This document shows, one piece after another, positions 516-28,748 of a DNA stretch of 32,123 nt. The notes under the pieces are model-generated. The model was given only the letters and a program-made list of their open reading frames with translations. It was not told the DNA's origin and did not search any database. Numbering within the stretch: position 1 is the stretch's first letter; each line of letters begins with the position of its first letter. Location: the IMG/VR virus record IMGVR_UViG_3300045988_082739; one strand, given 5' to 3'. A program made the translations under genes and the position numbers. Origin of the DNA: a virus.

Positions 516-518
516 AAA

Positions 519-1769: not shown

Positions 1770-1781
1770 TTAGGGCTTTCG

Positions 1782-1808: not shown

Positions 1809-1838
1809 TCCGGCCAGACACAGGAAAGGGGCGAAAGA

Positions 1839-2258: not shown

Positions 2259-2298
2259 GCCGGAGCCGCCCCGTTTCGATTTAGGCCGTATCCCGCCT

Positions 2299-2418
2299 CG
2301 CCGCTAATTGGTGGCTCCGTTCCCCGAATGCGGGCAACTCCAACAATTTCGTGAATGTGAACACCGACGGCACAGTCAACAACAACAACGCGAACAATTC
2401 GCTCGGGTTCGCGCCGGG
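2299..2418 (+). repeat. DGR template repeat (TR), 120 nt with 30 adenines and 13 in-phase AAY codons
   Basis: It lies in non-coding DNA between avd and the RT and is homologous to VR1 and VR2. When phased on the VR frame it reads ANWWLRSPNAGNSNNFVNVNTDGTVNNNNANNSLGFAPG. The similarity weakens after 2418 (gggAtttcgc in the TR versus gggCtttt / gggCtttg in the VRs). Confidence 0.9.
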
Positions 2419-2658
2419 ATTTCGCATAAGCCAGACCGATTAACTCCTTGAGAGCTAAAGCCGTGCGTATGCAAAAGGGGGATACGACCTCTCCGACCGC
2501 CCGCAAGGGCACGACGACAAACTGATAGCTCGACACGGAGGGCCGGACGCTCCTTGCATGGCGGCGGCGTGCGCGTTTGCCGCCGTTTCATGGCCTCACC
2601 GTTACGCAATTTAGACAACGCGCCGAGAAAGAATTGTGCGAGGTATTTTTATTTTGTT
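2299..2658 (+). ncRNA. Putative DGR RNA (TR plus about 240 nt spacer upstream of the RT)
   Basis: By analogy with the BPP-1 TR-Sp RNA. No credible ORF is present: the - strand ORFs 2219..2536 and 2376..2618 overlap the TR. Local stems are present (ggcggc..gccgcc near 2560-2590). The boundaries are not determined. Confidence 0.45.
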
Positions 2659-3774: not shown

Positions 3775-3786
3775 GAGGGGTCAAGT

Positions 3787-4173
3787 ATGGAATACGTCGT
3801 TTATAAGCGGTTCAAGGAAAAGGGTATCGACGGGCGGTTTAACCTCCCGTTTGGTACGGTATGCGAGGAGCGGGGCGGCTACCTTTTCGCCCAGGACGGT
3901 CGCCGCATTTGCGCCGTGAAATCCGAAAACGGGTGGGGCCATTTCCGACCGAACACGGAGGAGGGCCGGAGGCGGCTCGTCATGCTTGAGCGGCTCTATC
4001 GCTACTATGCGCCCGGCGGGAAGAAAGCGCCGGAGGGCAACGCCGCCGAGGATTTCGACCCGGATAAATGGCAGGGGGCGGAAAATACATACTGGAAAAG
4101 CCTACTCCGCACCATGCCGACGGACAAGCTCGAGGCGTTCTATCGGGCCCGGCTCGGAGAGCCGGAGTATTGA
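3787..4173 (+). CDS. Hypothetical protein (128 aa)
   Basis: Long ORF in the operon orientation with GGAGGGG upstream. No family recognised. Confidence 0.6.
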   Translation: MEYVVYKRFKEKGIDGRFNLPFGTVCEERGGYLFAQDGRRICAVKSENGWGHFRPNTEEGRRRLVMLERLYRYYAPGGKKAPEGNAAEDFDPDKWQGAENTYWKSLLRTMPTDKLEAFYRARLGEPEY

Positions 4174-4185
4174 GGAGGTATCACC

Positions 4186-4500
4186 ATGTATAAAGTCACG
4201 GTCGACGGAGTTTTCGCCGGATACTCCGATACGGCGGTTTTCGTCCGGCTCCACGAGAACGGGTGCTATATCCCTTGTGAGGAGACGGAGGCCGAGGGCG
4301 TATGCGTAAAGCTCCCCTACGAGTTCCAAGACGACGAGGGGAACACGGTACGCACGGTCGAGGATATTGTTTTCTCACTCACGGAGGGCGGCTTATCCGG
4401 CATTGAACAGGTGGCGGAGCTCGAACACGCGAGCGGGCCGCTCATGCTCTCGGAGGCCGAGGCCGTCGTCGATATTCTGTTAGGAGGTAGCGGAGAATGA
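4186..4500 (+). CDS. Hypothetical acidic protein (104 aa)
   Basis: GAGGAGG RBS upstream. The stop overlaps the next start (ATGA). Confidence 0.6.
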   Translation: MYKVTVDGVFAGYSDTAVFVRLHENGCYIPCEETEAEGVCVKLPYEFQDDEGNTVRTVEDIVFSLTEGGLSGIEQVAELEHASGPLMLSEAEAVVDILLGGSGE

Positions 4501-4910
4501 TTACACGGGAAAGAGCGCGGGAACTCCGGGCCGTTATCGAAAGCGCGGTATCCGCATACGGGCTCGACGACGCGGCGGCGGTCGCGGTCGTGGAGCTTTT
4601 CCCTCAATGGGAGGTCGGGAAAACATATGCCATCGGAACAAGGGTACAGCACGACGGAAAGCTCTACGAGTGCGTCAACGCGCACACGGCGGCGGCGGAG
4701 TGGAGCCCGTCGGTCGCCGCCTCCCTTTGGGACGAGGTTAAAGTCGACCCGGAAACGGGATATGACGAGTGGCAACAGCCGTCCGGCGCTCACGACGCAT
4801 ACAACACCGGCGACCGTGTTGTCTATAATGGCTCCGTGTACGAGAGCCTTATCGACGGCAACGTATGGGCCCCGGACGCATACCCGGCAGGGTGGAAAAT
4901 CGTCGAATGA
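4497..4910 (+). CDS. Protein with two CBM5/12-like carbohydrate-binding repeats
   Basis: Two copies of the pattern Y..G..V..(D/N)G.(L/V)YE......W.P....(L/G)W: YAIGTRVQHDGKLYECVNAHTAAAEWSPSVAASLW and YNTGDRVVYNGSVYESLIDGNVWAPDAYPAGW. Confidence 0.5.
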   Translation: MITRERARELRAVIESAVSAYGLDDAAAVAVVELFPQWEVGKTYAIGTRVQHDGKLYECVNAHTAAAEWSPSVAASLWDEVKVDPETGYDEWQQPSGAHDAYNTGDRVVYNGSVYESLIDGNVWAPDAYPAGWKIVE

Positions 4911-5122
4911 GGGCGGCGATATACACGGTCTCAAAGGGCGGGAAAGAAATCGCTCGCCTCCCCGCGCTGATATGGGTACGGCTCGCGGAGCCGGGCCTTT
5001 ATCTCGTATGCGGAGAGGACGATGGCGAGGGCGTGCTCGTGGGCAGGGAGATATACCACGTCCGGGGGTGCCCTATCCTCCACGGAAAAGAGACCGTGAC
5101 GCTCGATTACATCGAAGAATAA
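4907..5122 (+). CDS. Hypothetical protein (71 aa)
   Basis: ATGA start/stop overlap with the preceding gene. Confidence 0.5.
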   Translation: MRAAIYTVSKGGKEIARLPALIWVRLAEPGLYLVCGEDDGEGVLVGREIYHVRGCPILHGKETVTLDYIEE

Positions 5123-5138
5123 CGGGAGGAAAAAGCGT

Positions 5139-5459
5139 ATGCAGTATGCGGAAATCATCATCGGGGCCGTGTGTACTATCGTCGGCGTTCTCTTGAGCTA
5201 TGCCGCCTTTGCCCGGAACTCGAAAAAGGACAGCGAGGCCAGCGGGAAAGAGAGCGGGACGGTGCTCACGGAGATAGGGTACATAAAGGGCGGGGTCGAC
5301 CGTATCGAGCGGAAACAGGACGAGCAGGACGCGAGGTATATCACTATGGCGGAGCGCGTTACCGCCATCGAGAGCTCCGCGAAACAGGCTCACAAGCGTA
5401 TCGACCGGCTCGAGGGGCACGAGAACGACCGTTTTTCGGAGGCGGTTCATAATGAGTAG
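5139..5459 (+). CDS. Lysis-cassette membrane protein: N-terminal TM helix plus coiled coil
   Basis: IIIGAVCTIVGVLLSYAAF hydrophobic helix followed by a charged helical region. Located just upstream of the holin-like genes. Confidence 0.55.
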   Translation: MQYAEIIIGAVCTIVGVLLSYAAFARNSKKDSEASGKESGTVLTEIGYIKGGVDRIERKQDEQDARYITMAERVTAIESSAKQAHKRIDRLEGHENDRFSEAVHNE

Positions 5460-5784
5460 CGGTAAGCGGGTGGCAAAGACCGACGGGAAATTGAAAAAGG
5501 CGGCGGGGGCCGTGTGGAGCTTTGTAAAGGGGTATCTCACCTTTTCAAAGCTCCTCGTTTTCGCCGTGCTTTTTATCGACTACAAGGCGACTATGGTAAC
5601 GCTCGACTTGTGCTATATCGCCGTAGCGAACAATTATACCGGGAGCCTCCCGTACCTGACCGCCCTTATCGCCTTTTTACAGGCCGCGACCGCGACCGTG
5701 CTCTCGTTCTCGCTCAATAAGAGCAAGGCCGAGAACACGACCGGCGGTATCACATACGAGGCAAATATAAAAAGAGATTGTTAG
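5452..5784 (+). CDS. Holin-like membrane protein (2 predicted TM helices)
   Basis: Hydrophobic segments LLVFAVLFIDY..MVTLDLCYIAV and LPYLTALIAFLQAATATVLSF. Located upstream of the endolysin. Confidence 0.5.
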   Translation: MSSGKRVAKTDGKLKKAAGAVWSFVKGYLTFSKLLVFAVLFIDYKATMVTLDLCYIAVANNYTGSLPYLTALIAFLQAATATVLSFSLNKSKAENTTGGITYEANIKRDC

Positions 5785-5795
5785 GAGGTAAAGAC

Positions 5796-6011
5796 GTGAA
5801 CAAGAACATCGTAAAGCGGCTCGCCGCCCTCTTGAGCGTCAAGAGCATTGTAACGCTCTTGCTCTCCGGGGTATTCGCCTACCTCGCAATTACGGGGAAC
5901 ACGAGCCAAGAGTTTATGACCGTCTACACGGTCGTTATCGCGTTCTATTTCGGAACGCAGACGCAGAAAATCAGCGACGCGGTAGCACAGAGCGAGGAGG
6001 GCAAGGAATGA
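5796..6011 (+). CDS. Holin (71 aa, 2 TM helices)
   Basis: GTG 5796 lies 7 nt after AGGAGG (5783-5788). TM segments are IVTLLLSGVFAYLAI and FMTVYTVVIAFYFG. ATGA overlap with the endolysin start. Confidence 0.6.
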   Translation: MNKNIVKRLAALLSVKSIVTLLLSGVFAYLAITGNTSQEFMTVYTVVIAFYFGTQTQKISDAVAQSEEGKE

Positions 6012-6823
6012 ACTTGCACAAGTGCATTTTGACAAGGAACGATTGCTATACCTCCGGGCGGACGATTACGCCGCGCGGCGTTATGGTACATTCGACCGGG
6101 GCGAATAATCCGACCCTCCGCCGGTACGTCCAGCCGGACGACGGACTATTAGGGGACAACAGGTACGACAACGATTGGAACAGGCCGGGAACGGGCGCTT
6201 GTGTTCATGCCTTTATCGGAGAGCTCGCCGACGGCTCCGTCGCGACCTATCAGACCTTGCCGTGGAATTGGCGCGGGTGGCACGCCGCCTCCGGCCCGAA
6301 CGGGAGCGCGAACAACACGCATATTTCTTTCGAGATTTGCGAGGACGGTCTCGACGACCCCGTTTATTTTGCGAAAGTCTATCAAGAGGCCGCGGAGCTG
6401 ACCGCGTACCTTTGCAAGCTGTACGGCCTCGACCCGGAGGCCGACGGGGTAGTTATCTGCCATAGCGAGGGGCACACGCGCGGTATCGCCTCAAATCATG
6501 GGGACGTTATGCACTGGTTCCCCCGGCACGGTAAAAACATGGATGATTTCCGGGCGGAAGTCGCCCGGCTTATCAAAAATCAAAGCGGAAAGGATGAATT
6601 GGACATGACAAAAGAGGAGCTCGTTTCTTGCGCTGGTACAGGCGACAACCCCTCCGGGTGGGCTCGTGAGCACACGGAGTATTGCAAGCAAAAGGGCATT
6701 TTCGCCGGAGACGGAGCGGGTAACTACGGTTGGCAACAGCCGATTACCCGAGAGGCCGTCGCGACCATCGTACACCGCGCTCTTGAGGTCGCGGGACTTG
6801 CCGACAGTATCCCGGACGCATAA
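6008..6823 (+). CDS. Endolysin: N-acetylmuramoyl-L-alanine amidase (Amidase_2/PGRP-like) with a C-terminal SLH-like wall-binding segment
   Basis: Motifs MVHSTGANNP, CVHAFIG, WHAASGPNGSANNTHISFEICED and ICHSEGH. The C-terminal GIFAGDGAGNYGWQQPITREAVATIVHRAL resembles an SLH motif. Confidence 0.8.
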   Translation: MNLHKCILTRNDCYTSGRTITPRGVMVHSTGANNPTLRRYVQPDDGLLGDNRYDNDWNRPGTGACVHAFIGELADGSVATYQTLPWNWRGWHAASGPNGSANNTHISFEICEDGLDDPVYFAKVYQEAAELTAYLCKLYGLDPEADGVVICHSEGHTRGIASNHGDVMHWFPRHGKNMDDFRAEVARLIKNQSGKDELDMTKEELVSCAGTGDNPSGWAREHTEYCKQKGIFAGDGAGNYGWQQPITREAVATIVHRALEVAGLADSIPDA

Positions 6824-6837
6824 GCAGGACACAGAGA

Positions 6838-6872
6838 ACGGGCGGGGGTATAGACCCTCGCCCGTTTTTTCT
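6838..6872 (+). terminator. Rho-independent terminator after the lysis cassette
   Basis: aacgggcggggg..ccctcgcccgtt stem (one mismatch) followed by tttttt. Confidence 0.7.
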
Positions 6873-6894
6873 TTTGCACGCATAACGCAGAAAT

Positions 6895-6932
6895 AACGCA
6901 CGGCGAGCGATAGGTTATCGCGACCGTGCGTT
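6895..6932. terminator. Imperfect hairpin (aacgcacgg .. ccgtgcgtt plus an inner gcgata stem); probable terminator for the - strand gene 6969..7511
   Basis: A 9-bp perfect outer stem was read directly. It lies 37 nt beyond the - strand stop. Confidence 0.4.
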
Positions 6933-6968
6933 AAATGCGTGTTATTGCGACAAAATGCTTTTGAAATG

Positions 6969-7511
6969 CTACTTTTTGAAATAGACCGCAATATCGAGGC
7001 CGTAGTTTGCACGCTCCCCGTCGCTATCCTCGTACACAAAGCCGCCGGTAACGTCGTAGGACTCGACCCTCTCGAAACGGTCTATTTGCGAGAGCGCCCG
7101 CTTGAGGTCGCCGGTCGAGATACTCCCGACTTGCTCCTCGCCGTAGAACACGCCGACGGCGGGCTTGCCCTCGAAATCATACTTTCGGAGGGAAAAAGAG
7201 TACGTCGAGGGCTCCTCCCGTTTGATTTCCCGGAGTATCGTTTGACGGCTCCGGCCTCCGGGGTTCTTGAATGTCACGCCGACGACCCGGAATATCTCCC
7301 GGTTTAGGGTGGCGCGGTATGCCTCCTCCCGCCGCCGGGCCTCCTCCCTCTCGGCCTCTTTCCGGGCTTTCTCCTCGGCCTGGAGCCGTGCGGCCTCCGC
7401 CGCCTCTTTCTTGAGCTCGTTCTTTTTCCATAGCCGGTATATGAGTACGCAGATACCGACCGGGTAGAATATGACGAGTAAGACGATTTGCCACGTTTTG
7501 AGCTTTTTCAT
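6969..7511 (-). CDS. Membrane-anchored protein: N-terminal TM helix, charged coiled coil, HIRAN-like C-terminal domain (paralog of 24795..25346)
   Basis: MKKLKTWQIVLLVIFYPVGICVLIYRLWKK, then an E/K/R-rich helix, then FRVVGVTFKN..RSRQTILREI...GKPAVGVFYGEEQVGSIS. It has its own promoter. The HIRAN call is pattern-based only. Confidence 0.7.
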   Translation of the reverse strand: MKKLKTWQIVLLVIFYPVGICVLIYRLWKKNELKKEAAEAARLQAEEKARKEAEREEARRREEAYRATLNREIFRVVGVTFKNPGGRSRQTILREIKREEPSTYSFSLRKYDFEGKPAVGVFYGEEQVGSISTGDLKRALSQIDRFERVESYDVTGGFVYEDSDGERANYGLDIAVYFKK

Positions 7512-7569
7512 TGAGAGCCCCTCCCGTTAAATTGTGCTTTTATATTCCGGCTTGTAAGCCTTAATTACA

Positions 7570-7598
7570 ATATTAACGAGAAAACATGATACAGTCAA
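7570..7598 (-). promoter_or_regulatory. Sigma-70-type promoter for 6969..7511 (TTGACT - 17 nt - TAATAT on the - strand)
   Basis: The reverse complement of 7593..7598 is TTGACT and of 7570..7575 is TAATAT. Confidence 0.5.
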
Positions 7599-7623
7599 GG
7601 GGCAAACGAGAGGAGGCGGCGAT

Positions 7624-7866
7624 TTGCGGGTATATGAGTACGAGGGAAAGCGGAACATATCGGGAGAGCGTATCCACCAACGCCGGACGACGCTCCGGCT
7701 CTCTCAAGCAGACCTCGCGGCCCGTATGCAAGTTCGCGGCGTGACTATCGAGCGGGAGGCTATCTCAAAAATAGAGACCGGCGACCGTTTCGTTACCGAC
7801 TATGAGTTTATCATATTCGCGGAGGTTTTAGGCGTGTCTATGGAATGGCTCGCCGGAAAAGAATAG
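7624..7866 (+). CDS. XRE-family HTH transcriptional regulator (CI/Cro-like), 80 aa, TTG start
   Basis: LRLSQADLAARMQVRGVTIEREAISKIETGDR is a typical HTH_3 motif. AGGAGG lies 7 nt upstream of TTG 7624. The gene is divergent from 6969..7511. Confidence 0.8.
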   Translation: MRVYEYEGKRNISGERIHQRRTTLRLSQADLAARMQVRGVTIEREAISKIETGDRFVTDYEFIIFAEVLGVSMEWLAGKE

Positions 7867-7877
7867 AGAAACGACAA

Positions 7878-7907
7878 CCCCGGCGGGAACTCCGCCGGGG
7901 ATTTTTT
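7878..7907 (+). terminator. Rho-independent terminator
   Basis: ccccggcgg gaact ccgccgggg followed by attttttc. Confidence 0.8.
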
Positions 7908-7929
7908 CGCATAAATTCAAGAAAAACAC

Positions 7930-7958
7930 TTGACATACTGCAAGCAGTATGATAATAT
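7930..7958 (+). promoter_or_regulatory. Strong promoter TTGACA - 17 nt - TAATAT with an 18-bp perfect palindrome (catactgc aa gcagtatg, 7934..7951) filling the spacer; putative operator
   Basis: Hexamers and palindrome were read directly. It lies immediately downstream of the XRE gene terminator. Confidence 0.6.
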
Positions 7959-7981
7959 AATAGACGAAAGGAGGGTAGACA

Positions 7982-8107
7982 TTGAGAAAGCGCAAAAAGA
8001 AAAGCGGCAATAAGAAAGACGGCACGGCAAGCACACTCAATCTTATTACCGCTCTCGTAAACCTCGTGATAGCTATTCTACTTCTCATTGAAAAGCTAAC
8101 CGAGTAG
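7982..8107 (+). CDS. Small hydrophobic peptide, 41 aa (Lys/Arg-rich N-terminus plus one TM helix); not in the supplied ORF track because it is under 60 aa
   Basis: TTG 7982 lies 7-8 nt after AAAGGAGGG. Translation: (M)RKRKKKSGNKKDGTASTLNLITALVNLVIAILLLIEKLTE. It is followed by a GNRA-loop hairpin at 8107..8138. Confidence 0.45.
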   Translation: MRKRKKKSGNKKDGTASTLNLITALVNLVIAILLLIEKLTE

Positions 8108-8265: not shown

Positions 8266-8457
8266 ATGGCAGAGACAAAAAGAAAGACTAAAACCTCGAC
8301 AGCGGTAAAGCAGAAGTATAACGAGCGGGTTTACGACGTGCTTTCCGTGAGGGTTCCGAAAGAGACGGCGGCGGCGTTCAAGGCGAAGTGTGCCGCCGAG
8401 GGTATCCCGCAAGCGCAGATTATCAAGAGGGCGATAGAGGAGTTTTTGAACGCATAG
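8266..8457 (+). CDS. Ribbon-helix-helix (CopG/Arc-like) DNA-binding protein, 63 aa
   Basis: VLSVRVPKETAAAFKAKCAAEGIPQAQIIKRAIEEFL shows the beta-strand/helix/helix RHH pattern. A hairpin ggggcgg gtat ccgcccc plus tttt follows at 8466-8488. Confidence 0.6.
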   Translation: MAETKRKTKTSTAVKQKYNERVYDVLSVRVPKETAAAFKAKCAAEGIPQAQIIKRAIEEFLNA

Positions 8458-8517: not shown

Positions 8518-9564
8518 ATGGCACGGGCGAAATATAAGCAACTCGATAGAGACCGGCGGCTCCAAATGGAGGCGCTCTTTCGGGCCGGTCTAAAGCCTCG
8601 CGCGATTGCGGAGCAAATCGGGTGCCATATCTCGACCGTGTATCGGGAGTTCCGGCGGGGCGAGTATGAGCACCTAAACAGCGATTACACCACGGAGCGC
8701 CGGTACAGCGCAGACAAGGCCGAGGCCCTCCACCAACTCAACGCGACCGCGAAAGGGGCCCCGCTCAAGATAGGGAAAAACTTTGCCGTCGCGGAGTTCA
8801 TCGAGGGGAAGATAAAGGACGACAAATACTCCCCGGCGGCGGTATGCGCCCTCTTGCGGACGGAGGAGTACGCTCATTTCGGTATCACCTTTTGCCGGGC
8901 CACGATTTACAAGTATATCGAGGACGGGAATATCTTTCCGAACATCACGAACAAAGACCTCCCGGAAAAAGGCGAGCGCAAGCGGGAGTATAACAGGGTG
9001 CGGGAAAAGAAAGAGCCTCGGGGCCGGAGTATCGAGGAGCGGGCGGCGGAGGTCGACGAGCGGCAAGAGCCGGGGCATTGGGAAATGGATAGCGTCCTCG
9101 GAAAGAAAGGGACAAAGGCGCGGCTCCTCGTCCTCTCGGAGCGGGTGACGCGGAGCGAGATTATCATAAAGATACAGGACGGGCGGGCGATTACGGTCGT
9201 CCGGGCCCTCGACCGCCTCGAGCGGGAGCTCGGAGACCTTTTCCCCGTGATATTCAAGTCGATAACGTGCGACAACGGCTCCGAGTTCGCGAATTGGGCC
9301 GGTATCGAGCGTAGCGTATGGAAACGAAAGGGACAGCGGACGACGGTTTATTTCTGCCATCCGTACACCGCTTGCGAACGAGGCACGAATGAGAACATAA
9401 ACAGAATGATACGCCGCCACTTCCCGAAAGGTACGGATTTCGGGAAAGTGACGGCGGCGGAGGTAAAGCGAGTCGAGCGGTGGATTAACACCTATCCGCG
9501 CGAGATTTTAGGCTTTTCGTCCTCCGCTGATATGTTCGCGGAGGCGTTTGGGCGGGCCTCTTGA
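8518..9564 (+). CDS. IS30-family DDE transposase / integrase (348 aa)
   Basis: N-terminal HTH (AIAEQIGCHISTVYREFRRGE). Catalytic region HWEMDSV ... ITCDNGSEFANW ... HPYTACERGTNENINRMIRRHFPKGTDF, the typical IS30 DD(33)E signature. No flanking inverted repeats could be found by eye. Confidence 0.85.
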   Translation: MARAKYKQLDRDRRLQMEALFRAGLKPRAIAEQIGCHISTVYREFRRGEYEHLNSDYTTERRYSADKAEALHQLNATAKGAPLKIGKNFAVAEFIEGKIKDDKYSPAAVCALLRTEEYAHFGITFCRATIYKYIEDGNIFPNITNKDLPEKGERKREYNRVREKKEPRGRSIEERAAEVDERQEPGHWEMDSVLGKKGTKARLLVLSERVTRSEIIIKIQDGRAITVVRALDRLERELGDLFPVIFKSITCDNGSEFANWAGIERSVWKRKGQRTTVYFCHPYTACERGTNENINRMIRRHFPKGTDFGKVTAAEVKRVERWINTYPREILGFSSSADMFAEAFGRAS

Positions 9565-9604: not shown

Positions 9605-9633
9605 TTGACATTCGGGGTCGCGCCGTTTATCAT
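9605..9633 (+). promoter_or_regulatory. Promoter TTGACA - 17 nt - TATCAT (probable early promoter) with an A/T-rich upstream tract
   Basis: Read directly. It is followed by an imperfect palindrome attgcg...cgcaat (9635-9666). Confidence 0.55.
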
Positions 9634-21015: not shown

Positions 21016-22179
21016 ATGAACATCGAGAAAAGACTCGCAGAAATCCGCGCTCGCAAGGCCGAAATCCGCTCCATCATCGAGAAAGACGACAAGGCGGATA
21101 TGGACGCTCTCGAGAAAGAGCTCCGCGAGCTGAACGAGGAGGCCGAGGGCCTCGAGCGTCGGCAGAACATCGAGCGTATGCTCAACAGCGGCGCGGCGGT
21201 CGCTAATCCCGTGAGCGTGAACACTCCCGAGAGCCGCTCCGAGGAGGTAGACGAAAAGCTCTACCGTTCCGCATGGCTGAAAACCTTGCAGGGTAAGCCC
21301 CTCACTGACGCGGAGCAGAGGGCTTATAGCACCGCCGCGAACTCCGGCCTCCCCATTATCCCGGAGACGACCGCAAATCAGATCATCAAGAAAATGTACG
21401 AGGTCGCGCCCATCCTCGAGCGGTGCCGTATCTTCCACGTTCCCGGCAATATGAAATTTGCCGTTGAGGGGACGAACGACGACGCGGCTCTCCACACCGA
21501 GAACGCGGCTATCACCCCGGCGGGCGACTCCCTCACGTCCGTAAACCTCACCGGCTACGAAATCGTAAAGCTGGTGAAAGCCTCCCGCGCGTGCTCCGAA
21601 ATGGCGCTTTCCGCCTTTGAGAGCTACGTCGTCGAGATTATCGCGGAGTCTATCGCCCGGAAGATTGAAAACTACATCTTCACCGGCACGGGCTCCAACC
21701 AGCCGGGCGGCGTGAAAACCGCCGGTAAGGGCGCGAGCGGCGCGTATACCGACAACACCGACCAGATTACCGTTGCCGCCGCCGGTTCTCTCTCCGAGGC
21801 GAACGTCGTCGCCCTGTATGGTATGCTCGGGGACGGCTACGAGAGAAACGCCGTGTGGTGCATGAGAAAGGCGACGTTCTTCTCCGACTTCTTCCCGCTG
21901 ATGAACAAGAGCAAGAACAACCTTATCGAGTTCGCGAACGGTCGTTACTACATCATGGGTAACGAGGTCTATTTCACCGGCTCCGTGCCCGCAGACGAGG
22001 CGTATCTCGGCGACTTCTCCTATATCATCGGCAACTACTCGCAGGATATTACCGTCGTCAAGAGCGAGCACTCCGGCCTCGCGACGAACTCTATCGACTT
22101 CCTCGGCTCTTGCGTGTTCGACAGCAAGCCCGCCGCCGGTCTCGGCGCGTTCGTCCATCTGGCAAAGGCCAGCGCGTAA
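21016..22179 (+). CDS. Major capsid protein (HK97 fold) with an N-terminal coiled-coil delta/scaffold domain
   Basis: N-terminus MNIEKRLAEIRARKAEIRSIIEKDDKADMDALEKELRELNEEAEGLERRQN followed by a capsid-like body. 387 aa. Confidence 0.85.
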   Translation: MNIEKRLAEIRARKAEIRSIIEKDDKADMDALEKELRELNEEAEGLERRQNIERMLNSGAAVANPVSVNTPESRSEEVDEKLYRSAWLKTLQGKPLTDAEQRAYSTAANSGLPIIPETTANQIIKKMYEVAPILERCRIFHVPGNMKFAVEGTNDDAALHTENAAITPAGDSLTSVNLTGYEIVKLVKASRACSEMALSAFESYVVEIIAESIARKIENYIFTGTGSNQPGGVKTAGKGASGAYTDNTDQITVAAAGSLSEANVVALYGMLGDGYERNAVWCMRKATFFSDFFPLMNKSKNNLIEFANGRYYIMGNEVYFTGSVPADEAYLGDFSYIIGNYSQDITVVKSEHSGLATNSIDFLGSCVFDSKPAAGLGAFVHLAKASA

Positions 22180-22192
22180 GGGAGGGCTCTAA

Positions 22193-22510
22193 ATGGCTAT
22201 CGGAGACTCGTATTTGACGAGTATCCGGCAGTACATGAGAATTACCTCGACCGCGTTCGACCCCGAATTGAAAGACCTCATTAACGCCGCCCGAGCCGAC
22301 CTTGTGCTCGGCGGCGTTCTTGAGGTCAAGGCGCAGGACGAGACCGACCCGCTTATCTTGCGGGCGGTCGCGACCTATGTAAAGGCCGAGTTCGGGCTCG
22401 ATAACGAGGACTCGGAGAAATACCGGGCCTCGTACAAGGAACAGCGGAACGGGCTCACCCTATCGGACGCATATATCGCGGCGGAGGAGCCAGAGCCGGA
22501 GGAGGGATAG
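22193..22510 (+). CDS. Head-tail connector protein (gp6-like)
   Basis: YLTSIRQYMRITSTAFDPELKDLINAARADL pattern and position. Confidence 0.7.
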   Translation: MAIGDSYLTSIRQYMRITSTAFDPELKDLINAARADLVLGGVLEVKAQDETDPLILRAVATYVKAEFGLDNEDSEKYRASYKEQRNGLTLSDAYIAAEEPEPEEG

Positions 22511-22513
22511 CTC

Positions 22514-22822
22514 ATGTATTGGCGGGATACGGTGACGCTTGAGGCCGTCACCCACGGCGCAGACGAGGAGGGATACCCGAAAGAGGCCGTCGAGGAGACG
22601 GAGGTTTTCGCCGACGTTCAATCGGTGCGGCGCTCCGAGTTCTACGCCGCAAAGCAAATCGGAGTTACCCTCGCTATCGCGGTCAAGCTCCGCGCCGCCG
22701 ACTATGCCGGGCAAGAGCGCCTTGTCTGGAATGGCACGCGGTACAAGGTCGAGCGGGCCTATACGGAGGCGCGGGAAATGTACGAGCTCGAGTGCTCGGA
22801 GTTCAAGGAGGCGGAGAAATGA
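22514..22822 (+). CDS. Head closure / head-tail adaptor protein
   Basis: Position and size. ..VFADVQSVRRSEFYAAKQIG...RLVWNGTRYKV is a typical head-closure pattern. Confidence 0.65.
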   Translation: MYWRDTVTLEAVTHGADEEGYPKEAVEETEVFADVQSVRRSEFYAAKQIGVTLAIAVKLRAADYAGQERLVWNGTRYKVERAYTEAREMYELECSEFKEAEK

Positions 22823-23148
22823 GTATCGAGGCGCGGCTCGTCGAGGCTTTCGACGGGCTCGTGAACTCCCCCGCCGCCGCGAACACCTACAAGGGCGACG
22901 ACGCGGAGTATATCACGTTCAACTATACGGAGATACCCGACGATTTCGGGGACGACGACGCGGGCCATTACCGGGCCCTCGTGCAAGTGCATTATTTCGC
23001 CCCGCACGAGAAGAACACACGGGCGACACGGCGGGAAATCACCCGCCGTATCGTCGCCGCCGGGTTCACGAGGCCGTCTATCACTCCGGCCTCGGACGCG
23101 AACGGGCAACACTACGTTTTCGAGTGTGAGGACGCGGAGGCGGTGTAG
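22819..23148 (+). CDS. Neck / tail-completion protein (hypothetical structural), 109 aa
   Basis: ATGA coupling and position in the connector gene series. Confidence 0.5.
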   Translation: MSIEARLVEAFDGLVNSPAAANTYKGDDAEYITFNYTEIPDDFGDDDAGHYRALVQVHYFAPHEKNTRATRREITRRIVAAGFTRPSITPASDANGQHYVFECEDAEAV

Positions 23149-23150
23149 CT

Positions 23151-23576
23151 ATGGCGGAAATCAACACGAGCGGGCTCGACGAGCTCCTCTCGGACATGGG
23201 CGCTATCGCGGAGATACCCGACGCGGTGCTCCTCGAAATGCTCGTAGCCGAGGCCGAGGTTATCGCCCCGGCACAGGCGCAAGAGGCGCGGGCTATGGGC
23301 GTTTACGACACCGGCACGACGGCGCAGAGCATCACGTACGACAAAAAGCTCCGCCAGACTAAAGACGGGGAGCCAGCTATCTATGTATATCCAAGAGGCA
23401 CGCGGCGGGACGGAAACCCCCGGCGCGTGGCAGAGGTCGCCTTTGTGAATGAGTTCGGGAAAGCGGGCCAGCCGGGGCGACCGTTCATCAACACGGCAAA
23501 CGAGAAAAAGGCCGACTCCGCCGTCGAAGCGGCGGCGGGCGTGTACGACCGATTTCTCAAGAGTAAAAACCTATGA
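23151..23576 (+). CDS. HK97 gp10-family tail-completion protein
   Basis: ..VNEFGKAGQPGRPFINTANEKK.. pattern and position before the major tail gene. Confidence 0.65.
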   Translation: MAEINTSGLDELLSDMGAIAEIPDAVLLEMLVAEAEVIAPAQAQEARAMGVYDTGTTAQSITYDKKLRQTKDGEPAIYVYPRGTRRDGNPRRVAEVAFVNEFGKAGQPGRPFINTANEKKADSAVEAAAGVYDRFLKSKNL

Positions 23577-23590
23577 GGAGGTAAATCTAT

Positions 23591-24172
23591 ATGGCACAGT
23601 TTGGAGCAAAGAGGCCGAGGTTCGCGCCCGTGGCTACCACGCCGGACAACGCGCTCCCGACCTACAATTTCGAGAGCGTCGTAACGATTGGTAAGCTCGT
23701 GGCGGCTAACCTCACCGTTACCAACGCCTCCGGCGAGCTCTACGGCGACGACGCGCTCGCGGAGAAAATTGATATGTTCGCGTCCGGCTCGCTGGAATTG
23801 CAGACGGACGACAAGACGGCGGAGGTTCACGCGGCCTTGCATGGGGCCACGCTGGACGAGCTCGAGGAGGAGCTCACGGACTCCGACAGCGACGTAGCGC
23901 CGCGCGGCGGTCTTGCCTATTACAAGGTGCTTATCCGAAACGGCGTGCGCGTCTATCAGGGCGTTTTCCATCCCCTTGTGAACGCTATTCTCGGCAACGA
24001 CAGCGCGGCGACAAAGGGGAGCTCTATCACGTTCGGTACGTCCACGACCACCTTTACCGTGTTCCGTTGCAATTCCGGCGCATGGCGTATCCGTAAGGAG
24101 TTCGACAGTGAGGCGGACGTTATCGCGTGGTGCGACGAAAAACTCGGATATACCGCCCCCGGCGGCGGCTGA
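23591..24172 (+). CDS. Major tail protein
   Basis: Position upstream of the G/GT chaperones, 193 aa, followed by a hairpin. Confidence 0.7.
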   Translation: MAQFGAKRPRFAPVATTPDNALPTYNFESVVTIGKLVAANLTVTNASGELYGDDALAEKIDMFASGSLELQTDDKTAEVHAALHGATLDELEEELTDSDSDVAPRGGLAYYKVLIRNGVRVYQGVFHPLVNAILGNDSAATKGSSITFGTSTTTFTVFRCNSGAWRIRKEFDSEADVIAWCDEKLGYTAPGGG

Positions 24173-24180
24173 TAACAAAA

Positions 24181-24213
24181 CGGGAGGCGGCGTAAGAAAC
24201 CGCCTCCCGCTTT
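24181..24213 (+). terminator. Hairpin cgggaggcgg / ccgcctcccg after the major tail gene (probable partial terminator)
   Basis: A 10-bp perfect stem was read directly. The T-tract is weak (ctttgcc). Confidence 0.45.
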
Positions 24214-24234
24214 GCCGATTGGAGGCTTTGACAC

Positions 24235-24651
24235 ATGAAAGCGGCAAAATTCACCGTCGAGGGGACGGCCTATTACCTCGTCCTCGACGGAGAGGCTATG
24301 TTTCAGATACGGGACACGTTCGGCGGTACAAAGCTCCTCCTCGAGCAACTCGAGCAGGACACCCGCGAGGGGTTCGACGCGGCTTGCACCGCCGCCGCGT
24401 TCATGGCGGAGCGGGGCGAGCTCATTCGCCGCCGGTTAGGATACGCGCCGGGAGAGATACCGGACGCGGATACGTTCCGGCTCCTCGTGCCGACCTATGA
24501 AATCGTCGACCTCAAGAACGCGGTTATCAAGGCCGTAACGCTCGGGTACGGGCGGGAGGTCAAGAGCGCCGAGGACGACGAATACGACGAGGGCCTCGAG
24601 GAACTCCGTCAAAAAAAAACACCATCAAGCGGGCGGAATACTACCGCATAG
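24235..24651 (+). CDS. Tail assembly chaperone (gpG analogue)
   Basis: Acidic 138-aa protein immediately upstream of the tape measure region. It contains the slippery A9 run. Confidence 0.75.
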   Translation: MKAAKFTVEGTAYYLVLDGEAMFQIRDTFGGTKLLLEQLEQDTREGFDAACTAAAFMAERGELIRRRLGYAPGEIPDADTFRLLVPTYEIVDLKNAVIKAVTLGYGREVKSAEDDEYDEGLEELRQKKTPSSGRNTTA

Positions 24652-24761
24652 CCGCACGGTGCGGAATATCGGTAACGGAGGCGCTCTTTATGCCTCCCGG
24701 CGAGCTTTTCGACCTTTGGGAGCTGTACCTCCGCGACCACGGTAAACGGGAAACGGAATAA
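24611..24761 (+). other. Programmed -1 frameshift site (A9, 24611..24619) and -1 frame extension giving the GT-type chaperone (fusion of about 175 aa, stop 24759-24761)
   Basis: The 0 frame reads caa aaa aaa aca. After a -1 slip the frame reads aac acc atc .. = NTIKRAEYYRIAARCGISVTEALFMPPGELFDLWELYLRDHGKRETE, which stays open to 24761. Confidence 0.7.
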
Positions 24762-24765
24762 AGAA

Positions 24766-24787
24766 AGAGCCGGGGTCTCCCGGCTCT
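24766..24787 (-). terminator. Terminator for the - strand gene 24795..25346 (agagccggg gtct cccggctct; T-rich tail on the - strand)
   Basis: A 9-bp perfect stem. The - strand continues tttcttt. Confidence 0.65.
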
Positions 24788-24794
24788 TATCGGA

Positions 24795-25346
24795 TTACGC
24801 TTGTTCAGCCTTGCGGAAAAGGCATTTCACGATTGCTCCGTACTTCATGGAGCGGCCCTCGGAGTCTGTACCGCCCCCGGAAACGTCGGCGGAAATCACG
24901 CCGATATAGTCGCGCCAGCGGTCAAGGAAAAACGGTATGTCGTCTTTACCGATATTCCCGATTTGCTGACCATTTACGAAAATCGGGAAAGCGGGACTAC
25001 CCTCGAACTCACCGCGTTCTATCGTTATCTCTATGTCGTCCCCATCAAATGGAGGGTCTCCCCATTTCAGCTTTCGCAAAATGGATTGCCGGGAGTGACC
25101 GTCCTCGTTTTTGAAGGTAACGCCGACGACCTTAAAGGGGATTTCCTCGCGGGAGGAGAGCTTGGCTTTTATACGGGCCCGTCTTTCGTTCTCCTCGCGC
25201 TCTTTTGCCTCCCGGCGGACGCGGATAGCCTCCTCCATTTCCGACTTGATTTTCTTCTTTTTCCATAGCCGGTAAATGAGGACGCAGATACCGACCGGGT
25301 AAAAAATCACGAGCAAGACGATTTGCCAGACCTTTAATTTTTTCAT
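24795..25346 (-). CDS. Membrane-anchored protein: TM helix, charged coiled coil, HIRAN-like domain (paralog of 6969..7511)
   Basis: MKKLKVWQIVLLVIFYPVGICVLIYRLWKK (28 of 30 residues identical to the other copy), then FKVVGVTFKNEDGHSRQSILRKL...GSPAFPIFVNGQQIGNIG. It has its own promoter and terminator. Confidence 0.75.
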   Translation of the reverse strand: MKKLKVWQIVLLVIFYPVGICVLIYRLWKKKKIKSEMEEAIRVRREAKEREENERRARIKAKLSSREEIPFKVVGVTFKNEDGHSRQSILRKLKWGDPPFDGDDIEITIERGEFEGSPAFPIFVNGQQIGNIGKDDIPFFLDRWRDYIGVISADVSGGGTDSEGRSMKYGAIVKCLFRKAEQA

Positions 25347-25385
25347 AGAGAGACCCCCTACTCCGTTTTTCGTTGGCTATTTCTC

Positions 25386-25413
25386 ATTATACGCGAAAAT
25401 GTGCGAAAGACAA
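25386..25413 (-). promoter_or_regulatory. Promoter for 24795..25346: TTGTCT - 16 nt - TATAAT on the - strand
   Basis: The reverse complement of 25408..25413 is TTGTCT and of 25386..25391 is TATAAT. Confidence 0.55.
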
Positions 25414-25452
25414 GTATTTTGTAAATTTTAATTACAGGACGGAGGGCGAGTA

Positions 25453-28212
25453 ATGGCAACACGCACCGTATCAACGAAACTCGCTATCCAAGGCGAGGAG
25501 CAGTATAAAAGCTCCATAAAGACGATTAACTCGACCCTCGCAACGCTGAAATCGGAGCTAAAGCTAACAGAGTCGCAGTTTGCAGGACAGGCAAACAGCC
25601 TCGAGGCATTAGAGGCCAAAGGCGAGACCCTCTCCAAAATGTACGAGGAGCAGGAAAAAAAGCTCAAGACCCTAAACGAAGTCGTATCAAAGGCCCGCGA
25701 CATTCAACAGGCATACGCCGATAGAGTCGAGCGGGCACAGGAAAACGTAAGTAAGTGTAAAGAGGCCCTCGACTCGCTTGCAAACGAGACAGGGGATACG
25801 AGCGCCGAGCAGGAAAAACTTGAGGCGGCGCTTAAGGCCGCGAACGACGAACTCGCAGAGGCTCAAAAGCACTATGACGAGGCTACGAGGAAAACAAACT
25901 CCTATCAGTCGCAACTAAACAGCACGGAGACCGCACTAAATGCGTTGGGGCGGGAAATCGACGACAATAACCGCTATCTCGACGAGGCCCGGAGTTCTAC
26001 GGACAAGTGCGCGAGCTCTATCGACGAGTACGGGAAAGAGGTCAAGGACGCGAGTAAAGAGACCGACTCTTTCGGCGAAAAGCTCAAGGGCGGACTCGTG
26101 ACCGGGGCAAAAGCCGCCACGACCGCGCTTGCGGCGGTCGGCGCGGCGGCGGTCGCCGGGGTGGGCGTGCTCCTCAGCCTCGCGGAGTCTACGGAGGAAT
26201 ACCGGGCCGCACAGGGGCGGTTAAATACCGCGTTCACGGCGGCGGGATACTCCACGGACACGGCGACGGAGGCGTATCGTTCCCTTTATGCCGTGCTCGG
26301 GGACACCGACACGGCGACGGAGGCGGCACAACTCCTCGCACAGCTCGCGACCTCCGAAAAGGACGTTGCAACGTGGGGCGATATTGCCGCCGGAGTATCC
26401 GGCACGTTTGGCGACGCGCTCCCGATAAACTCGCTCATTGAGGCGGCGAACGAGACGGCAAAGGTCGGCACAGTGACCGGGGCCCTCGCCGACGCTTTGA
26501 ATTGGGTCGGTATCAGCGAGGACGAGTTTAACGAAAAGCTCGCCGCGTGTGCCGACGAGACAGAGCGAGCAAACCTTATCACGGAGACCCTCTCCTCCAC
26601 CTACAAGGACGCGGGCGAGATTTTCAAGGAAAATAACGCCACGATTATGGAGGCGCGGGAGGCTCAAGCAGAACTCGACGACACGCTCGCCCGGCTCGGC
26701 GGGACGGTCGCCGACGTGAAAAACGAGCTCGTAGCGGAGTTCGCCCCGGCCCTCGCCGACGTGGTAGACGCTTTCGTCGACGTGATAAACGGGGTAGACG
26801 GCGCGGAGGAGGCGCTCGGAGAGGCTATCGACGGCATGATAGGGCAAGCCGCCGACAAGCTCCCGGAGCTCCTCGAGTTCGGTACGACTATCGTACTCAA
26901 CATTTTAGAGGGCATTGTGAACGCGGCTCCGCAACTTGCGGAGGCCGCGATTTCTGTACTCACCACACTAACGGAGGGGCTCGTATCAGCCCTCCCCCAG
27001 CTCGCCGAGGCCGCTATTCAAATCGTGAACGGGCTCGCAACGGGTATCGCCGAGGCGCTCCCGTCCCTCATTCCGGCGGCGGTGGCGGCTATCACGCAGT
27101 TAGTACAAACGCTGATAGAGAATATCCCCCTACTCGTCGACGCGGCGTTACAGCTCGTGACAGGGCTCGCGACGGGCATTATCGAGGCTATCCCGGTATT
27201 GCTCGAGGCGCTCCCAACGCTGATAGAGAGCCTCGTTACGGCGCTCCTCGAGGCCGTGCCGCAAATCATCGAGACGGGCGTTACCCTCTTGACGGCCCTC
27301 GTAACAAACCTCCCGGACATTATCGCGACGATATGCGAGGTATTGCCGCAAATCATCCAGTCGACCATAGATACCTTGCTCTCGCACTTGCCGGAAATCG
27401 TAGAGGCAGGGGTCGAGCTCTTAACGGCGCTCATTACCAACCTACCGCAAATTATCTCGACCATCGTACAGGCGCTCCCGCAAATCATTACCTCTATCGT
27501 CTCGACACTGGTAAACAATATCCCGAAAATAGTCGAGACCGGCGTAAAGCTCTTGACCTCCCTTATCACCAACCTACCGCAGATTATCTCCTCGCTTGTG
27601 GCGGCTATGCCGCAAATCATTTCGAGCATGGTATCGGCACTCGGGCAGGGCGTGAGCGCCTTTGCACAGGTGGGCGCAAACCTTGTCCAAGGGCTTTGGA
27701 GCGGTATTCAATCCCTCGCCGGGTGGCTATGGGATAAGGTCTCCGGGTGGATTTCCTCCATTTGGGACGGTATCACGGGCTTTTTCGGTATCTCCTCGCC
27801 GTCTAAAAAAATGGCGTGGGTCTCCGAAATGAATATCGAGGGCGCGGCTCGCGGTATCGAGCAGAACAAGGGCCGGGCGGTAAAAGCCTACGGAGATATG
27901 ACCGCCGAAATGCTCGACGAGGTAGAGTCGGGCATGAGGAAAGTGAATACCGCCCTCGCCGACGGTATCGGGGAAATGGAGACGGGCTTTTCCGCCCGCG
28001 CCACGATTGAACAGGTCTCCGCCGCCGTGCCGAGCATGGCAGACCGCCGCAGAGGGTCGGAGACGGCCTCCGGCGGGACGACGACGGTAACGAACACGTT
28101 CCATATCGGCGAGCTCGTCGTCCGCGAGGAGGCGGACGTAAAGCGCGTCGCAAAGGAGCTCTACAATATGCAACGCGCGAAATCTCGCGGAAAGGGGGTC
28201 GTTACCTCGTGA
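25453..28212 (+). CDS. Tape measure protein (919 aa)
   Basis: Length, position, an N-terminal coiled coil, and a central helical array with recurring LP(Q/E)II / TNLPQII motifs roughly every 20 residues (about 26950-27650). Confidence 0.9.
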   Translation: MATRTVSTKLAIQGEEQYKSSIKTINSTLATLKSELKLTESQFAGQANSLEALEAKGETLSKMYEEQEKKLKTLNEVVSKARDIQQAYADRVERAQENVSKCKEALDSLANETGDTSAEQEKLEAALKAANDELAEAQKHYDEATRKTNSYQSQLNSTETALNALGREIDDNNRYLDEARSSTDKCASSIDEYGKEVKDASKETDSFGEKLKGGLVTGAKAATTALAAVGAAAVAGVGVLLSLAESTEEYRAAQGRLNTAFTAAGYSTDTATEAYRSLYAVLGDTDTATEAAQLLAQLATSEKDVATWGDIAAGVSGTFGDALPINSLIEAANETAKVGTVTGALADALNWVGISEDEFNEKLAACADETERANLITETLSSTYKDAGEIFKENNATIMEAREAQAELDDTLARLGGTVADVKNELVAEFAPALADVVDAFVDVINGVDGAEEALGEAIDGMIGQAADKLPELLEFGTTIVLNILEGIVNAAPQLAEAAISVLTTLTEGLVSALPQLAEAAIQIVNGLATGIAEALPSLIPAAVAAITQLVQTLIENIPLLVDAALQLVTGLATGIIEAIPVLLEALPTLIESLVTALLEAVPQIIETGVTLLTALVTNLPDIIATICEVLPQIIQSTIDTLLSHLPEIVEAGVELLTALITNLPQIISTIVQALPQIITSIVSTLVNNIPKIVETGVKLLTSLITNLPQIISSLVAAMPQIISSMVSALGQGVSAFAQVGANLVQGLWSGIQSLAGWLWDKVSGWISSIWDGITGFFGISSPSKKMAWVSEMNIEGAARGIEQNKGRAVKAYGDMTAEMLDEVESGMRKVNTALADGIGEMETGFSARATIEQVSAAVPSMADRRRGSETASGGTTTVTNTFHIGELVVREEADVKRVAKELYNMQRAKSRGKGVVTS

Positions 28213-28748
28213 AATTGGGCTTTACATTCAACAACGTACACAGTGACGACATGGGGGTCGTGTTCCGCTCTACCGACCGAACGCTCCTCCCGCCGAAACG
28301 AGTCACGCAGTACACCATACCCGGCAAAAGCGGCACATACGACATAGAGGACGGATACGAAAACCGGGAAATCTCGTGCGAGGTATCCTTTGTCGGAGAG
28401 GATTATCAATATCCCGGCGTGCGGACGCGGGCCCGCGCCGTCGCCGGGTGGCTCTCCGGCGAGGGCTTGCTCATTTTCGACGACGAGCCGGAAAAGGCAT
28501 ACAGCGCAAAGGTTATCAGCGGTATAAGCATTGAGCAAATCGCGATTACGGGCCGTTGCGAGGTCGTCTTTCTTTGCGGGCCGTTCGCGGAGTCCATCCA
28601 GTATAATCAGCAGATTGTAAACTCCGTCTCCCTCCCACATTCGGAGCCGGTCAACGTGAACGGCACACAGGAGACGGATTGCCTTATCTACATCACGGCC
28701 CGAGGCAACATTACGAACTTGACCGTTACCCGTGTCAAGGTGAACTAA
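28209..28748 (+). CDS. Distal tail protein (Dit / Sipho_tail family), N-terminal-type portion, GTG start
   Basis: MKLGFTFNNVHSDDMGVVF..R.LLPP...YTIPGKSGTYD is a typical Sipho_tail N-terminus. GTGA coupling to the tape measure gene. Confidence 0.7.
   Translation: MKLGFTFNNVHSDDMGVVFRSTDRTLLPPKRVTQYTIPGKSGTYDIEDGYENREISCEVSFVGEDYQYPGVRTRARAVAGWLSGEGLLIFDDEPEKAYSAKVISGISIEQIAITGRCEVVFLCGPFAESIQYNQQIVNSVSLPHSEPVNVNGTQETDCLIYITARGNITNLTVTRVKVN

Follow-up and report, generated by a model that had tools for sequence, protein, structure and literature searches.

Why does a minus-strand gene stand inside the tail operon of a temperate phage, and what might its product do? The question is raised by a viral DNA record of 32,123 nt, IMGVR_UViG_3300045988_082739 (the whole of this stretch is called the window below), in which 691 bp separate the stop codon of the tail assembly chaperone frameshift product GT (TAA, 24759..24761) from the start of the gene for the tape measure protein (TMP) at 25453. 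The gap is occupied by an open reading frame on the minus strand (24795..25346, ATG start, 183 aa), hereafter copy B. An earlier description of the locus, made from the sequence of the window (the original prediction), had placed a minus-strand gene in a gap of about 690 bp between G/GT and TMP, and the gene was present exactly as claimed. We find that the cassette is a horizontally acquired insertion, that it carries a second, diverged allele of a gene kept elsewhere by nearly all relatives, and that its product, judged by profile comparison, joins a predicted transmembrane (TM) helix to a divergent member of the HIRAN superfamily.

Insertion of the cassette at the chaperone-tape measure junction

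The window was compared with 11 IMG/VR loci whose G protein is 66-100% identical to its own, and the junction between G and TMP proved to be polymorphic. The cassette gene is carried by two of these loci (L015 and L019) and is absent from the other nine (L016-L018 and L020-L025), in which TMP starts 116-122 nt past the end of the G match. At these empty sites, the stop codon of GT and the start codon of TMP overlap (TAATG; GTATAATGG, around 3520..3535), which implies translational coupling. The left flank of the window (…GGTAAACGGGA) is the same as in the empty sites and leads straight into the terminator of the cassette, and the right flank picks up at GGAGGGCG, 12 nt 5' of the TMP ATG. In the blastn alignment with the empty-site relative L016, positions 21232..24757 of the window correspond to 1..3523 (98.3% identity) and positions 25441..28334 to 3521..6414, which leaves an insert of 683 bp (Table 1). 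The insertion disrupts the coupling of GT and TMP, and the C terminus of GT is shortened and changed (…KRETE-stop vs …KRDKEGV-stop). The G+C content of the cassette is 49.9%, compared with 57.9% for the window and 60.9% for G. Inspection of the insertion by eye for flanking repeats and transposon ends showed only microhomology of the ACGGA type.

The divergence extends into TMP. Its first ~600 nt are 59-73% identical to the corresponding part of L016, L017 and L023, and beyond this point the identity rises to 99-100%. The position of the divergent end beside the cassette indicates that the two entered together, as a recombinant patch of ~1.3 kb; the TMP N-terminal allele that travels with the cassette may be hitch-hiking, or TMP and the cassette protein may be linked in function. 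Further downstream, TMP contains direct repeats of ~130 nt (27257..27621, plus strand), seen as secondary blastn matches of 66-71% and ordinary for TMPs.

Chance does not account for the insertion, given that 202 homologues of the gene were found and that the presence/absence polymorphism falls exactly at the G-TMP junction. These comparisons confirm the cassette as a true insertion and a horizontally acquired, self-contained moron in the sense of Hendrix and Juhala, as had been proposed: it is extra DNA between neighbours that are adjacent in relatives, it has a predicted promoter and terminator of its own, and its base composition is deviant. The further claim that this placement is unusual did not hold, since the G-TMP junction is the site of HK97 gp15 (PMC3594210) and is reused in at least five diverged lineages of the cassette family, as described below.

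Both transcription signals attributed to the cassette in the original prediction were recovered as predicted signals, that is, as consensus matches called by consensus and hairpin scans. The promoter (TTGTCT-16-TATAAT, read from 25413 to 25386) is the sole promoter-like site in the interval 24000..26000, where 0.6 are expected. The terminator has its T-run on the minus strand only, so the cassette transcript would be stopped and late transcription on the plus strand probably passes through to TMP. Promoters and terminators are recognisably homologous among the TMP-site cassettes of the window, L026 and L027, which suggests common descent. Upstream of the cassette, the -1 frame that follows the A9 slippery run (24612..24620) is open as far as the GT stop codon.

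A paralogue at the canonical site

The original prediction described copy B correctly and overlooked a paralogue in the same window, copy A (6969..7511). The two proteins share 45% identity (E 3e-42), and 25 of their first 26 residues are identical. Copies A and B appear to be the sole genuine minus-strand genes of the window.

Which of the two positions is the usual one? In every genomic context retrieved for the homologues P0006, P0041, P0091, P0101 and P0131, the gene has the lysis cassette on one side and an 80-aa HTH_31 gene on the other; after the latter come a ribbon-helix-helix (RHH) gene and then an rve integrase gene that adjoins host DNA. Canonical homologues are antisense to essentially all remaining phage genes. 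A census of 80 IMG/VR loci, 50 of them with full-length homologues, placed 43 of the 50 at this canonical site and six at the G-TMP junction, with one unclear. Most of the more distant homologues in the census lie just upstream of an rve integrase, on the same strand. The cassette gene is a diverged second allele; in nearly all relatives the gene is present at the canonical site, as the one gene that runs antisense.

The junction has been used repeatedly. The closest non-identical homologues, P0004 (64%) and P0005 (63%), likewise lie antisense between G/GT and TMP in other phages, and together with the window and the loci L063/L065 and L066/L068 they make up at least five diverged lineages. 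In a rough neighbour-joining tree, a hint only because it carries no support values, the TMP-site copies cluster with one canonical subclade. Contigs that are long enough and have a TMP-site copy also have a canonical copy (the window, UViG_3300029947_000022 and UViG_3300045988_032179), and one contig of an Oscillospiraceae metagenome-assembled genome (MAG) contains both copies at 99%. One further locus, L029 (a GCA_965347795.1 contig, 3803..8074), is an apparent prophage remnant consisting of the block of rve integrase, RHH gene, helix-turn-helix (HTH) gene and homologue with a few small open reading frames, flanked by host metabolic genes; it may represent retention of the module or its domestication.

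The two copies also share a short upstream element. The 18-bp sequence (Table 1) occurs exactly twice in the window and nowhere else in it with up to two mismatches allowed (0.04 expected). It abuts the -10 box in copy A and is found 5' of the -35 box in copy B; a shared regulator may bind it, or it may be left over from the donor locus. Several relatives have an inverted repeat, TTTAACAC…GTGTTAAA, ~60-100 nt 5' of the homologue, and its two arms enclose the spacer and -10 box of the TTGACT promoter. The repeat was seen in L001, L007, L029, L030 and L027, and as the last of these is a TMP-site copy, the cassette seems to move with its likely operator.

Membrane segment and topology of the protein

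The N-terminal TM helix and the adjoining charged helix of the original prediction agree with the present predictions. In the copy B protein a single segment is hydrophobic (residues 6-24, mean Kyte-Doolittle value 2.5), and the AlphaFold2 model built with 98 homologues (mean predicted local distance difference test score, pLDDT, 87.9) consists of a single helix, residues 6-64, and an alpha/beta domain, residues 66-178. Between the two, the stalk (residues 27-65) contains 15 K/R and 8 D/E, and its length differs among homologues through indels in alignment A1.

Mean column conservation is 0.94 in the N-terminal tail and 0.92 in the TM helix, compared with 0.53 in the stalk and 0.57 in the C-terminal domain, the reverse of the pattern that would be expected. 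The TM helix (…LLVIFYPVGICVLIYR) has a conserved FYPxG kink and a conserved Cys. Across the first 29 codons of copies A and B, 10 differ and nine of these differences are synonymous. Such a pattern, in the most conserved part of the protein, points to strong purifying selection on the TM helix itself, which is probably more than a passive anchor. Recent gene conversion was rejected as the cause of the identical TM segments because the nucleotide identity is 85% and nine of the 10 differing codons are synonymous. The invariant Cys21, which follows a signal-like N terminus, had suggested a lipoprotein; this idea was rejected, as the residue preceding the Cys is I, F or L and does not suit a lipobox.

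TM segments were present in 94 of 135 family representatives, including two-TM hairpins and C-terminal tail anchors (P0277). These arrangements, together with soluble relatives fused to cytoplasmic modules, place the domain on the cytoplasmic side, and the domain of the copy B protein is by this comparison probably cytoplasmic as well.

Relationship of the C-terminal domain to HIRAN

HIRAN is the module of HLTF and Rad5 that binds 3' ends, and stand-alone HIRAN proteins occur in bacteria. Another important question is whether the C-terminal domain is related to HIRAN, a six-stranded beta-barrel with two capping helices (PMC4666394). The resemblance noted in the original prediction stood at the level of profiles and failed in Pfam, in Foldseek and in the pocket motif. 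The Pfam hidden Markov model (HMM) of HIRAN, PF08797, was not matched at E<=1 by the query or by any of 98 homologues, and PDB sequence searches with the single sequence and two profiles gave no match. Profile-profile comparison was positive. An alignment of 66 domain-family sequences (A4) was compared by hhalign with an alignment of 71 of the 72 retrieved proteins with precomputed PF08797 domains (A5), and the two matched over 101 columns with a probability of 98.6% (E 9.8e-16); a narrow alignment that includes the window protein (A3) likewise scored 98.6% against A5. Decoys, reversed or column-shuffled, reached at most 0.4%. The proteins of A5 were retrieved using a hand-written consensus; those retrieved are real, and all have precomputed PF08797 hits. 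Against a single HLTF HIRAN sequence, hhalign returned the expected register (VNGQQIGNI/VNGNQVGHL) at a probability of 1-7%, which is not significant.

The domain-only AlphaFold2 model (pLDDT 96.2) shows the HIRAN order of elements with one additional helix, N-x-D-G-x-S-R-Q-x-I-L-R, between strands 1 and 2. Motifs common to both families are VVGV in strand 1, RQ, A-I/V-x-V, Q-I/V-G-N/Y, the next helix and GG. The aromatic residue F78 aligns with the position of HLTF Y72, which forms one wall of the dinucleotide cavity (PMC4666394). The hallmark NPxDxNA aligns with E-F-E-G-S-P-A, of which the family form is [YF]-E-G-x-P-A, and the only pocket residues kept are the Y72-equivalent aromatic and the Ala. 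A shift of one residue in the loop would put F114/E115 onto Y93/D94. On this profile evidence, the domain is a divergent member of the HIRAN superfamily with a remodelled pocket.

The wider family

The family is large: at a cut-off of E<=0.001, an exhaustive HMMER search with the domain profile gave 1,466 clusters at 50% identity. Besides stand-alone and tandem forms of the domain, there are fusions to an RNase_T 3'-5' exonuclease (P0239) and to a NUMOD-like HTH (P0186); further fusions involve DUF4236, bPH plus SHOCT, zinc ribbons and tail anchors (among P0169, P0189, P0194 and P0277). Binding of nucleic acid ends by the domain is plausible, and the exonuclease fusions support it. The domain family is unannotated and would deserve an entry of its own in Pfam, within the HIRAN clan.

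Database annotation added little. Scans of the cassette protein with Pfam, NCBIfam and PADLOC gave TM and low-complexity noise only. Its PHROG match, PHROG 37629, is a family without functional annotation, and BFVD returned only other uncharacterised viral proteins, one labelled DUF4236 and one labelled 'DNA polymerase III alpha' that is really an RNase_T fusion. No homologue of a characterised superinfection exclusion (Sie) protein was found through Pfam, NCBIfam, annotated PHROG families or PADLOC, and tblastn against 50,697 phage records was empty; neither megablast nor tblastn against the GenBank phage collection was informative.

Genome organization and host

The window is a circularly permuted, essentially complete genome of a temperate siphophage, arranged in the order diversity-generating retroelement (DGR), holin-like genes, amidase, HTH, RHH and rve integrase genes, early genes, terminase large subunit (TerL), capsid and tail. 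The coordinates are given in Table 1. The DGR lies downstream of the tail genes, and its reverse transcriptase (RVT_1) and DUF6273 target are kept in L001-L014. The integrase is of the IS30-like DDE type (rve/HTH_38), not a tyrosine or serine recombinase, and follows the RHH gene. In the integrated copies L029 and L030, the rve integrase directly adjoins host genes. A strong promoter-like site, TTGACA-17-TATCAT (9605..9633), lies 3' of the integrase. As the integrase end adjoins host DNA after integration, the regulatory operon would then be split from the early genes.

Among Oscillospiraceae and other Clostridia, homologues of the cassette protein occur both in MAGs and in isolates, for example in Acutalibacter caecimuris and Ruminococcus intestinalis. 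The phage is a temperate siphophage of gut Oscillospiraceae.

Table 1 Features of the window that bear on the cassette and its paralogue
Feature	Position	Strand	Basis or remark
DGR target protein, DUF6273	519..1769	+	
DGR reverse transcriptase, RVT_1	2554..3774	+	
Holin-like genes	5452..6011		
Amidase	6008..6823		
Copy A, 180-aa paralogue	6969..7511	-	between amidase (6008..6823) and cro-like HTH gene (7624..7866)
18-bp element TGTAATTAA-N3-TTACAA	7552..7569 and 25419..25436	-	upstream of copies A and B
Copy A promoter (predicted), TTGACT-17-TAATAT	7598..7570	-	within 7552..7598
cro-like HTH gene	7624..7866	+	
RHH gene	8266..8457	+	
rve/HTH_38 integrase	8518..9564	+	
Major tail protein gene	23591..24172	+	PHROG 88
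Tail assembly chaperone G, 138 aa	24235..24651	+	PHROG 2115 'tail protein', E 7e-6; directly 3' of major tail protein gene
A9 slippery run, -1 frameshift to GT of ~175 aa	24612..24620	+	codon walk, frame analysis
Inserted cassette, 683 bp	24758..25440		blastn against empty-site relative L016
Intrinsic terminator of cassette gene (predicted)	24765..24788	-	10-pair stem, 7 G-C pairs, T-run tail TCTTTATT
Divergent HIRAN-like domain, residues 66-180	24807..25151	-	hhalign, AlphaFold2 domain model
K/R/E-rich helical stalk, residues 27-65	25152..25268	-	AlphaFold2 helix, charge count
TM segment (predicted), residues 6-25	25272..25331	-	hydrophobicity and conservation
Ribosome-binding site GGAGTAGGGGG, 7 nt 5' of ATG	25354..25364	-	read off sequence
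Sigma-70-like promoter (predicted), TTGTCT-16-TATAAT	25386..25413	-	consensus scan, 10/12 matches
Foreign TMP 5' patch, Shine-Dalgarno sequence and ~196 first codons	25441..26040	+	nucleotide identity drop against relatives
Tape measure protein (TMP), 919 aa	25453..28212	+	PHROG 58, E 7.5e-75

Functional interpretation

What, then, could the cassette protein do? The reading that we prefer, at a probability of roughly 0.45, is that it would be a membrane-tethered protein, expressed from the prophage, whose domain on the cytoplasmic face binds DNA ends and excludes or aborts superinfecting DNA, the second allele being carried as a moron; superinfection exclusion or defence had been suggested in the original prediction as well. 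The cassette gene would be transcribed in the lysogen from its own promoter, and the protein would reside in the cytoplasmic membrane with its HIRAN-like domain facing the cytoplasm. There the domain would engage the free end of entering linear DNA, either a superinfecting genome or possibly transforming single-stranded DNA (ssDNA). Productive entry would be blocked, or a membrane-level response would be triggered through the conserved TM helix, and two diverged alleles stacked in one prophage might give broader or reinforced protection.

Exclusion at the membrane has precedents. HK97 gp15 and P22 SieA are small prophage-encoded membrane proteins that block DNA entry, and the first gene to be called a 'moron' was gene 15 of HK97, which is equipped with a promoter and a terminator of its own and encodes an inner-membrane superinfection exclusion protein whose effect depends on the tail region of the incoming phage (Juhala et al. 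2000; Cumby et al. 2012; reviewed in PMC3594210). The cassette shares with gp15 the slot between chaperone and TMP, presence or absence among relatives, a promoter and terminator of its own (predicted here), a deviant composition and a small product with a predicted membrane segment. Unlike gene 15, it runs counter to the tail operon and adds a second allele to one already present, and an exclusion function would be ascribed to it by analogy. Moreover, gp15 is YebO-like, small and devoid of a HIRAN-like domain, whereas the cassette protein has no such Pfam match, and HK97 infects E. coli whereas the host of the cassette phage is Gram-positive. Small membrane-associated prophage proteins that block DNA entry are also known from Gram-positive hosts, namely Sie2009 of Lactococcus and Ltp of S. 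thermophilus, the latter acting via the tape measure protein or tail. The cassette protein resembles these two and SieA in being small, prophage-encoded and predicted to have a single membrane segment; there is no detectable homology to any of them, and Ltp is a lipoprotein outside the membrane, whereas the cassette domain is probably cytoplasmic.

Several results weigh against the exclusion reading. Foldseek searches of the PDB with the full-length and domain-only models gave no match at E<=0.001, including to 4S0N, 5BNH and 3K2Y; the best HIRAN-containing entry, Rad5 (6l8n), ranked 17th with the domain-only model (E 0.92), and the HIRAN fold put forward in the original prediction was therefore not recovered by structural comparison, which that prediction had itself named as a refuting test. 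HLTF N90, N91 and D94 are not conserved, D94 aligning with an invariant G, and with the pocket residues altered in this way binding of DNA 3' ends may be changed or lost. If the ligand is independent of sequence, as a DNA end is, the divergence of the two C-terminal domains would be puzzling. No PADLOC defence model matches the cassette protein. The topology read from charges is ambiguous, with 3 K in the N-terminal tail against 6 K/R and 3 D/E on the C-terminal flank; the support for the promoter is its consensus match; and the canonical copy, which is divergent from a small cro- or cI-like HTH gene, could be early lytic.

A bolder version of the exclusion reading, which we regard as unlikely, is that the family embodies a new principle of defence among Gram-positive bacteria of the gut. 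Its divergent HIRAN domain, kept at the cytoplasmic face by the ultra-conserved TM helix, would seize linear DNA of any kind, phage genome or transforming ssDNA, by the leading 3' end during passage through the membrane, and entry would be stalled or a signal passed through the TM helix. Temperate phages would stack diverged alleles, with one in the lysogeny module and another at the G-TMP slot, for wider protection, and the TMP 5' allele that came with the cassette would reflect co-adaptation of tape measure and exclusion protein.

An unlikely explanation too, and the first of the rivals, is a sensor or modulator associated with lysogeny, which would sense, at the membrane, ssDNA or 3' ends arising for example from competence import or DNA damage, and would tune induction or block transformation that cures the prophage. 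The canonical position within the regulatory and integration module, divergent from the HTH gene, agrees with such a role, as does the inverted repeat of the relatives, TTTAACAC..GTGTTAAA, whose overlap with the promoter suggests control by a phage regulator, and the remnant L029 has retained the rve-RHH-HTH-homologue block only. A partial precedent is thaL, a transmembrane HIRAN protein named in the lysogeny module of pneumococcal prophages, where the neighbouring-type genes szaL and spaL modulate activation on competence (PMC12637031). By description, copies A and B share with thaL the layout of a TM segment and HIRAN, and copy A, with 43 of 50 relatives, shares its location in a lysogeny module, whereas copy B lies outside such a module. 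However, thaL is a gene name only in that study, given without a functional test (PMC12637031), and Oscillospiraceae are not known to become competent. A second copy in the tail operon, off the switch, also suits cargo, that is, a moron, better than core regulation.

Rather less credible is an abortive-infection effector, in which the domain would sense phage DNA ends or replication intermediates, the stalk would oligomerise, and the TM helix would form a pore that depolarises or kills the cell. An arrangement of sensor, stalk and TM helix is typical of membrane-disrupting defence effectors. The conservation of the TM helix (0.92 vs 0.57 for the domain), its FYPxG kink and Cys, the purifying selection on it and the predominance of TM-linked members in the domain family would all fit. 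Nevertheless, the PADLOC scan gave no match, a single TM helix with a 5-residue N-terminal tail would be a minimal pore former, and a constitutive toxin needs tight control, whereas the cassette is without a partner gene.

We consider it improbable that the protein is a lytic-cycle helper by which phage DNA, or intermediates of its replication, would be anchored at the membrane in the manner of phi29 p16.7. As an integral protein of the membrane, p16.7 binds ssDNA and organises the replication of phi29 there, and the layout of the cassette protein parallels it (PMC4974454), with an N-terminal TM helix, a coiled coil and a C-terminal domain for which DNA binding is likewise proposed. The gene is nearly universal in its phage group, as a core function would be. 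On the other side, p16.7 is an early lytic gene product with another DNA-binding fold and without homology to the cassette protein, and Pfam scans show no relationship between them. The cassette gene family provides the sole antisense gene, with a predicted promoter and terminator of its own, unlike replication genes of early operons, and the second copy is dispensable, being present or absent among near-identical phages.

A role in the control of lysis, as a holin- or antiholin-like protein, or else in virion structure or tail assembly, is hardly credible: the canonical copy abuts the lysis cassette, an N-terminal TM helix followed by a highly charged region is holin-like, and copy B lies inside the tail operon, but the gene points the opposite way from the late operon and has a predicted promoter and terminator independent of it, 180 aa with a folded HIRAN-like domain are unlike holins, holin-like genes are already present at 5452..6011, and the emptiness of the junction in nine of 11 relatives means that the gene is not needed for tail assembly, for which reason the structural role was rejected.

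Conclusions

Morons at the junction between chaperone and tape measure genes are a textbook phenomenon, and the placement of this cassette is ordinary. Its cargo is an uncharacterised, Pfam-invisible branch of membrane-tethered HIRAN proteins, as delimited by profile comparison, in an architecture that has barely been noted. With PF08797 HIRAN the family shares profile homology over ~100 columns, the core motifs, the order of strands and helices in the AlphaFold2 model, the Y72-type aromatic and nuclease fusions in relatives; it differs in lying below detection by the Pfam HMM, in its altered pocket and extra helix, and in being predominantly membrane-tethered. To our knowledge, no membrane-anchored HIRAN protein has a demonstrated function, and the name thaL is the sole precedent that we found.

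HIRAN domains are known so far mainly from eukaryotic fork remodelling, and if the cassette protein does intercept incoming DNA ends, a role would be assigned to bacterial and phage HIRAN domains. It would also give a mechanistic handle on superinfection exclusion in gut Firmicutes that are hard to culture. The gene is the sole antisense gene in a large group of DGR-carrying temperate phages of Oscillospiraceae, and the natural two-allele and empty-site phages are ready isogenic comparisons.

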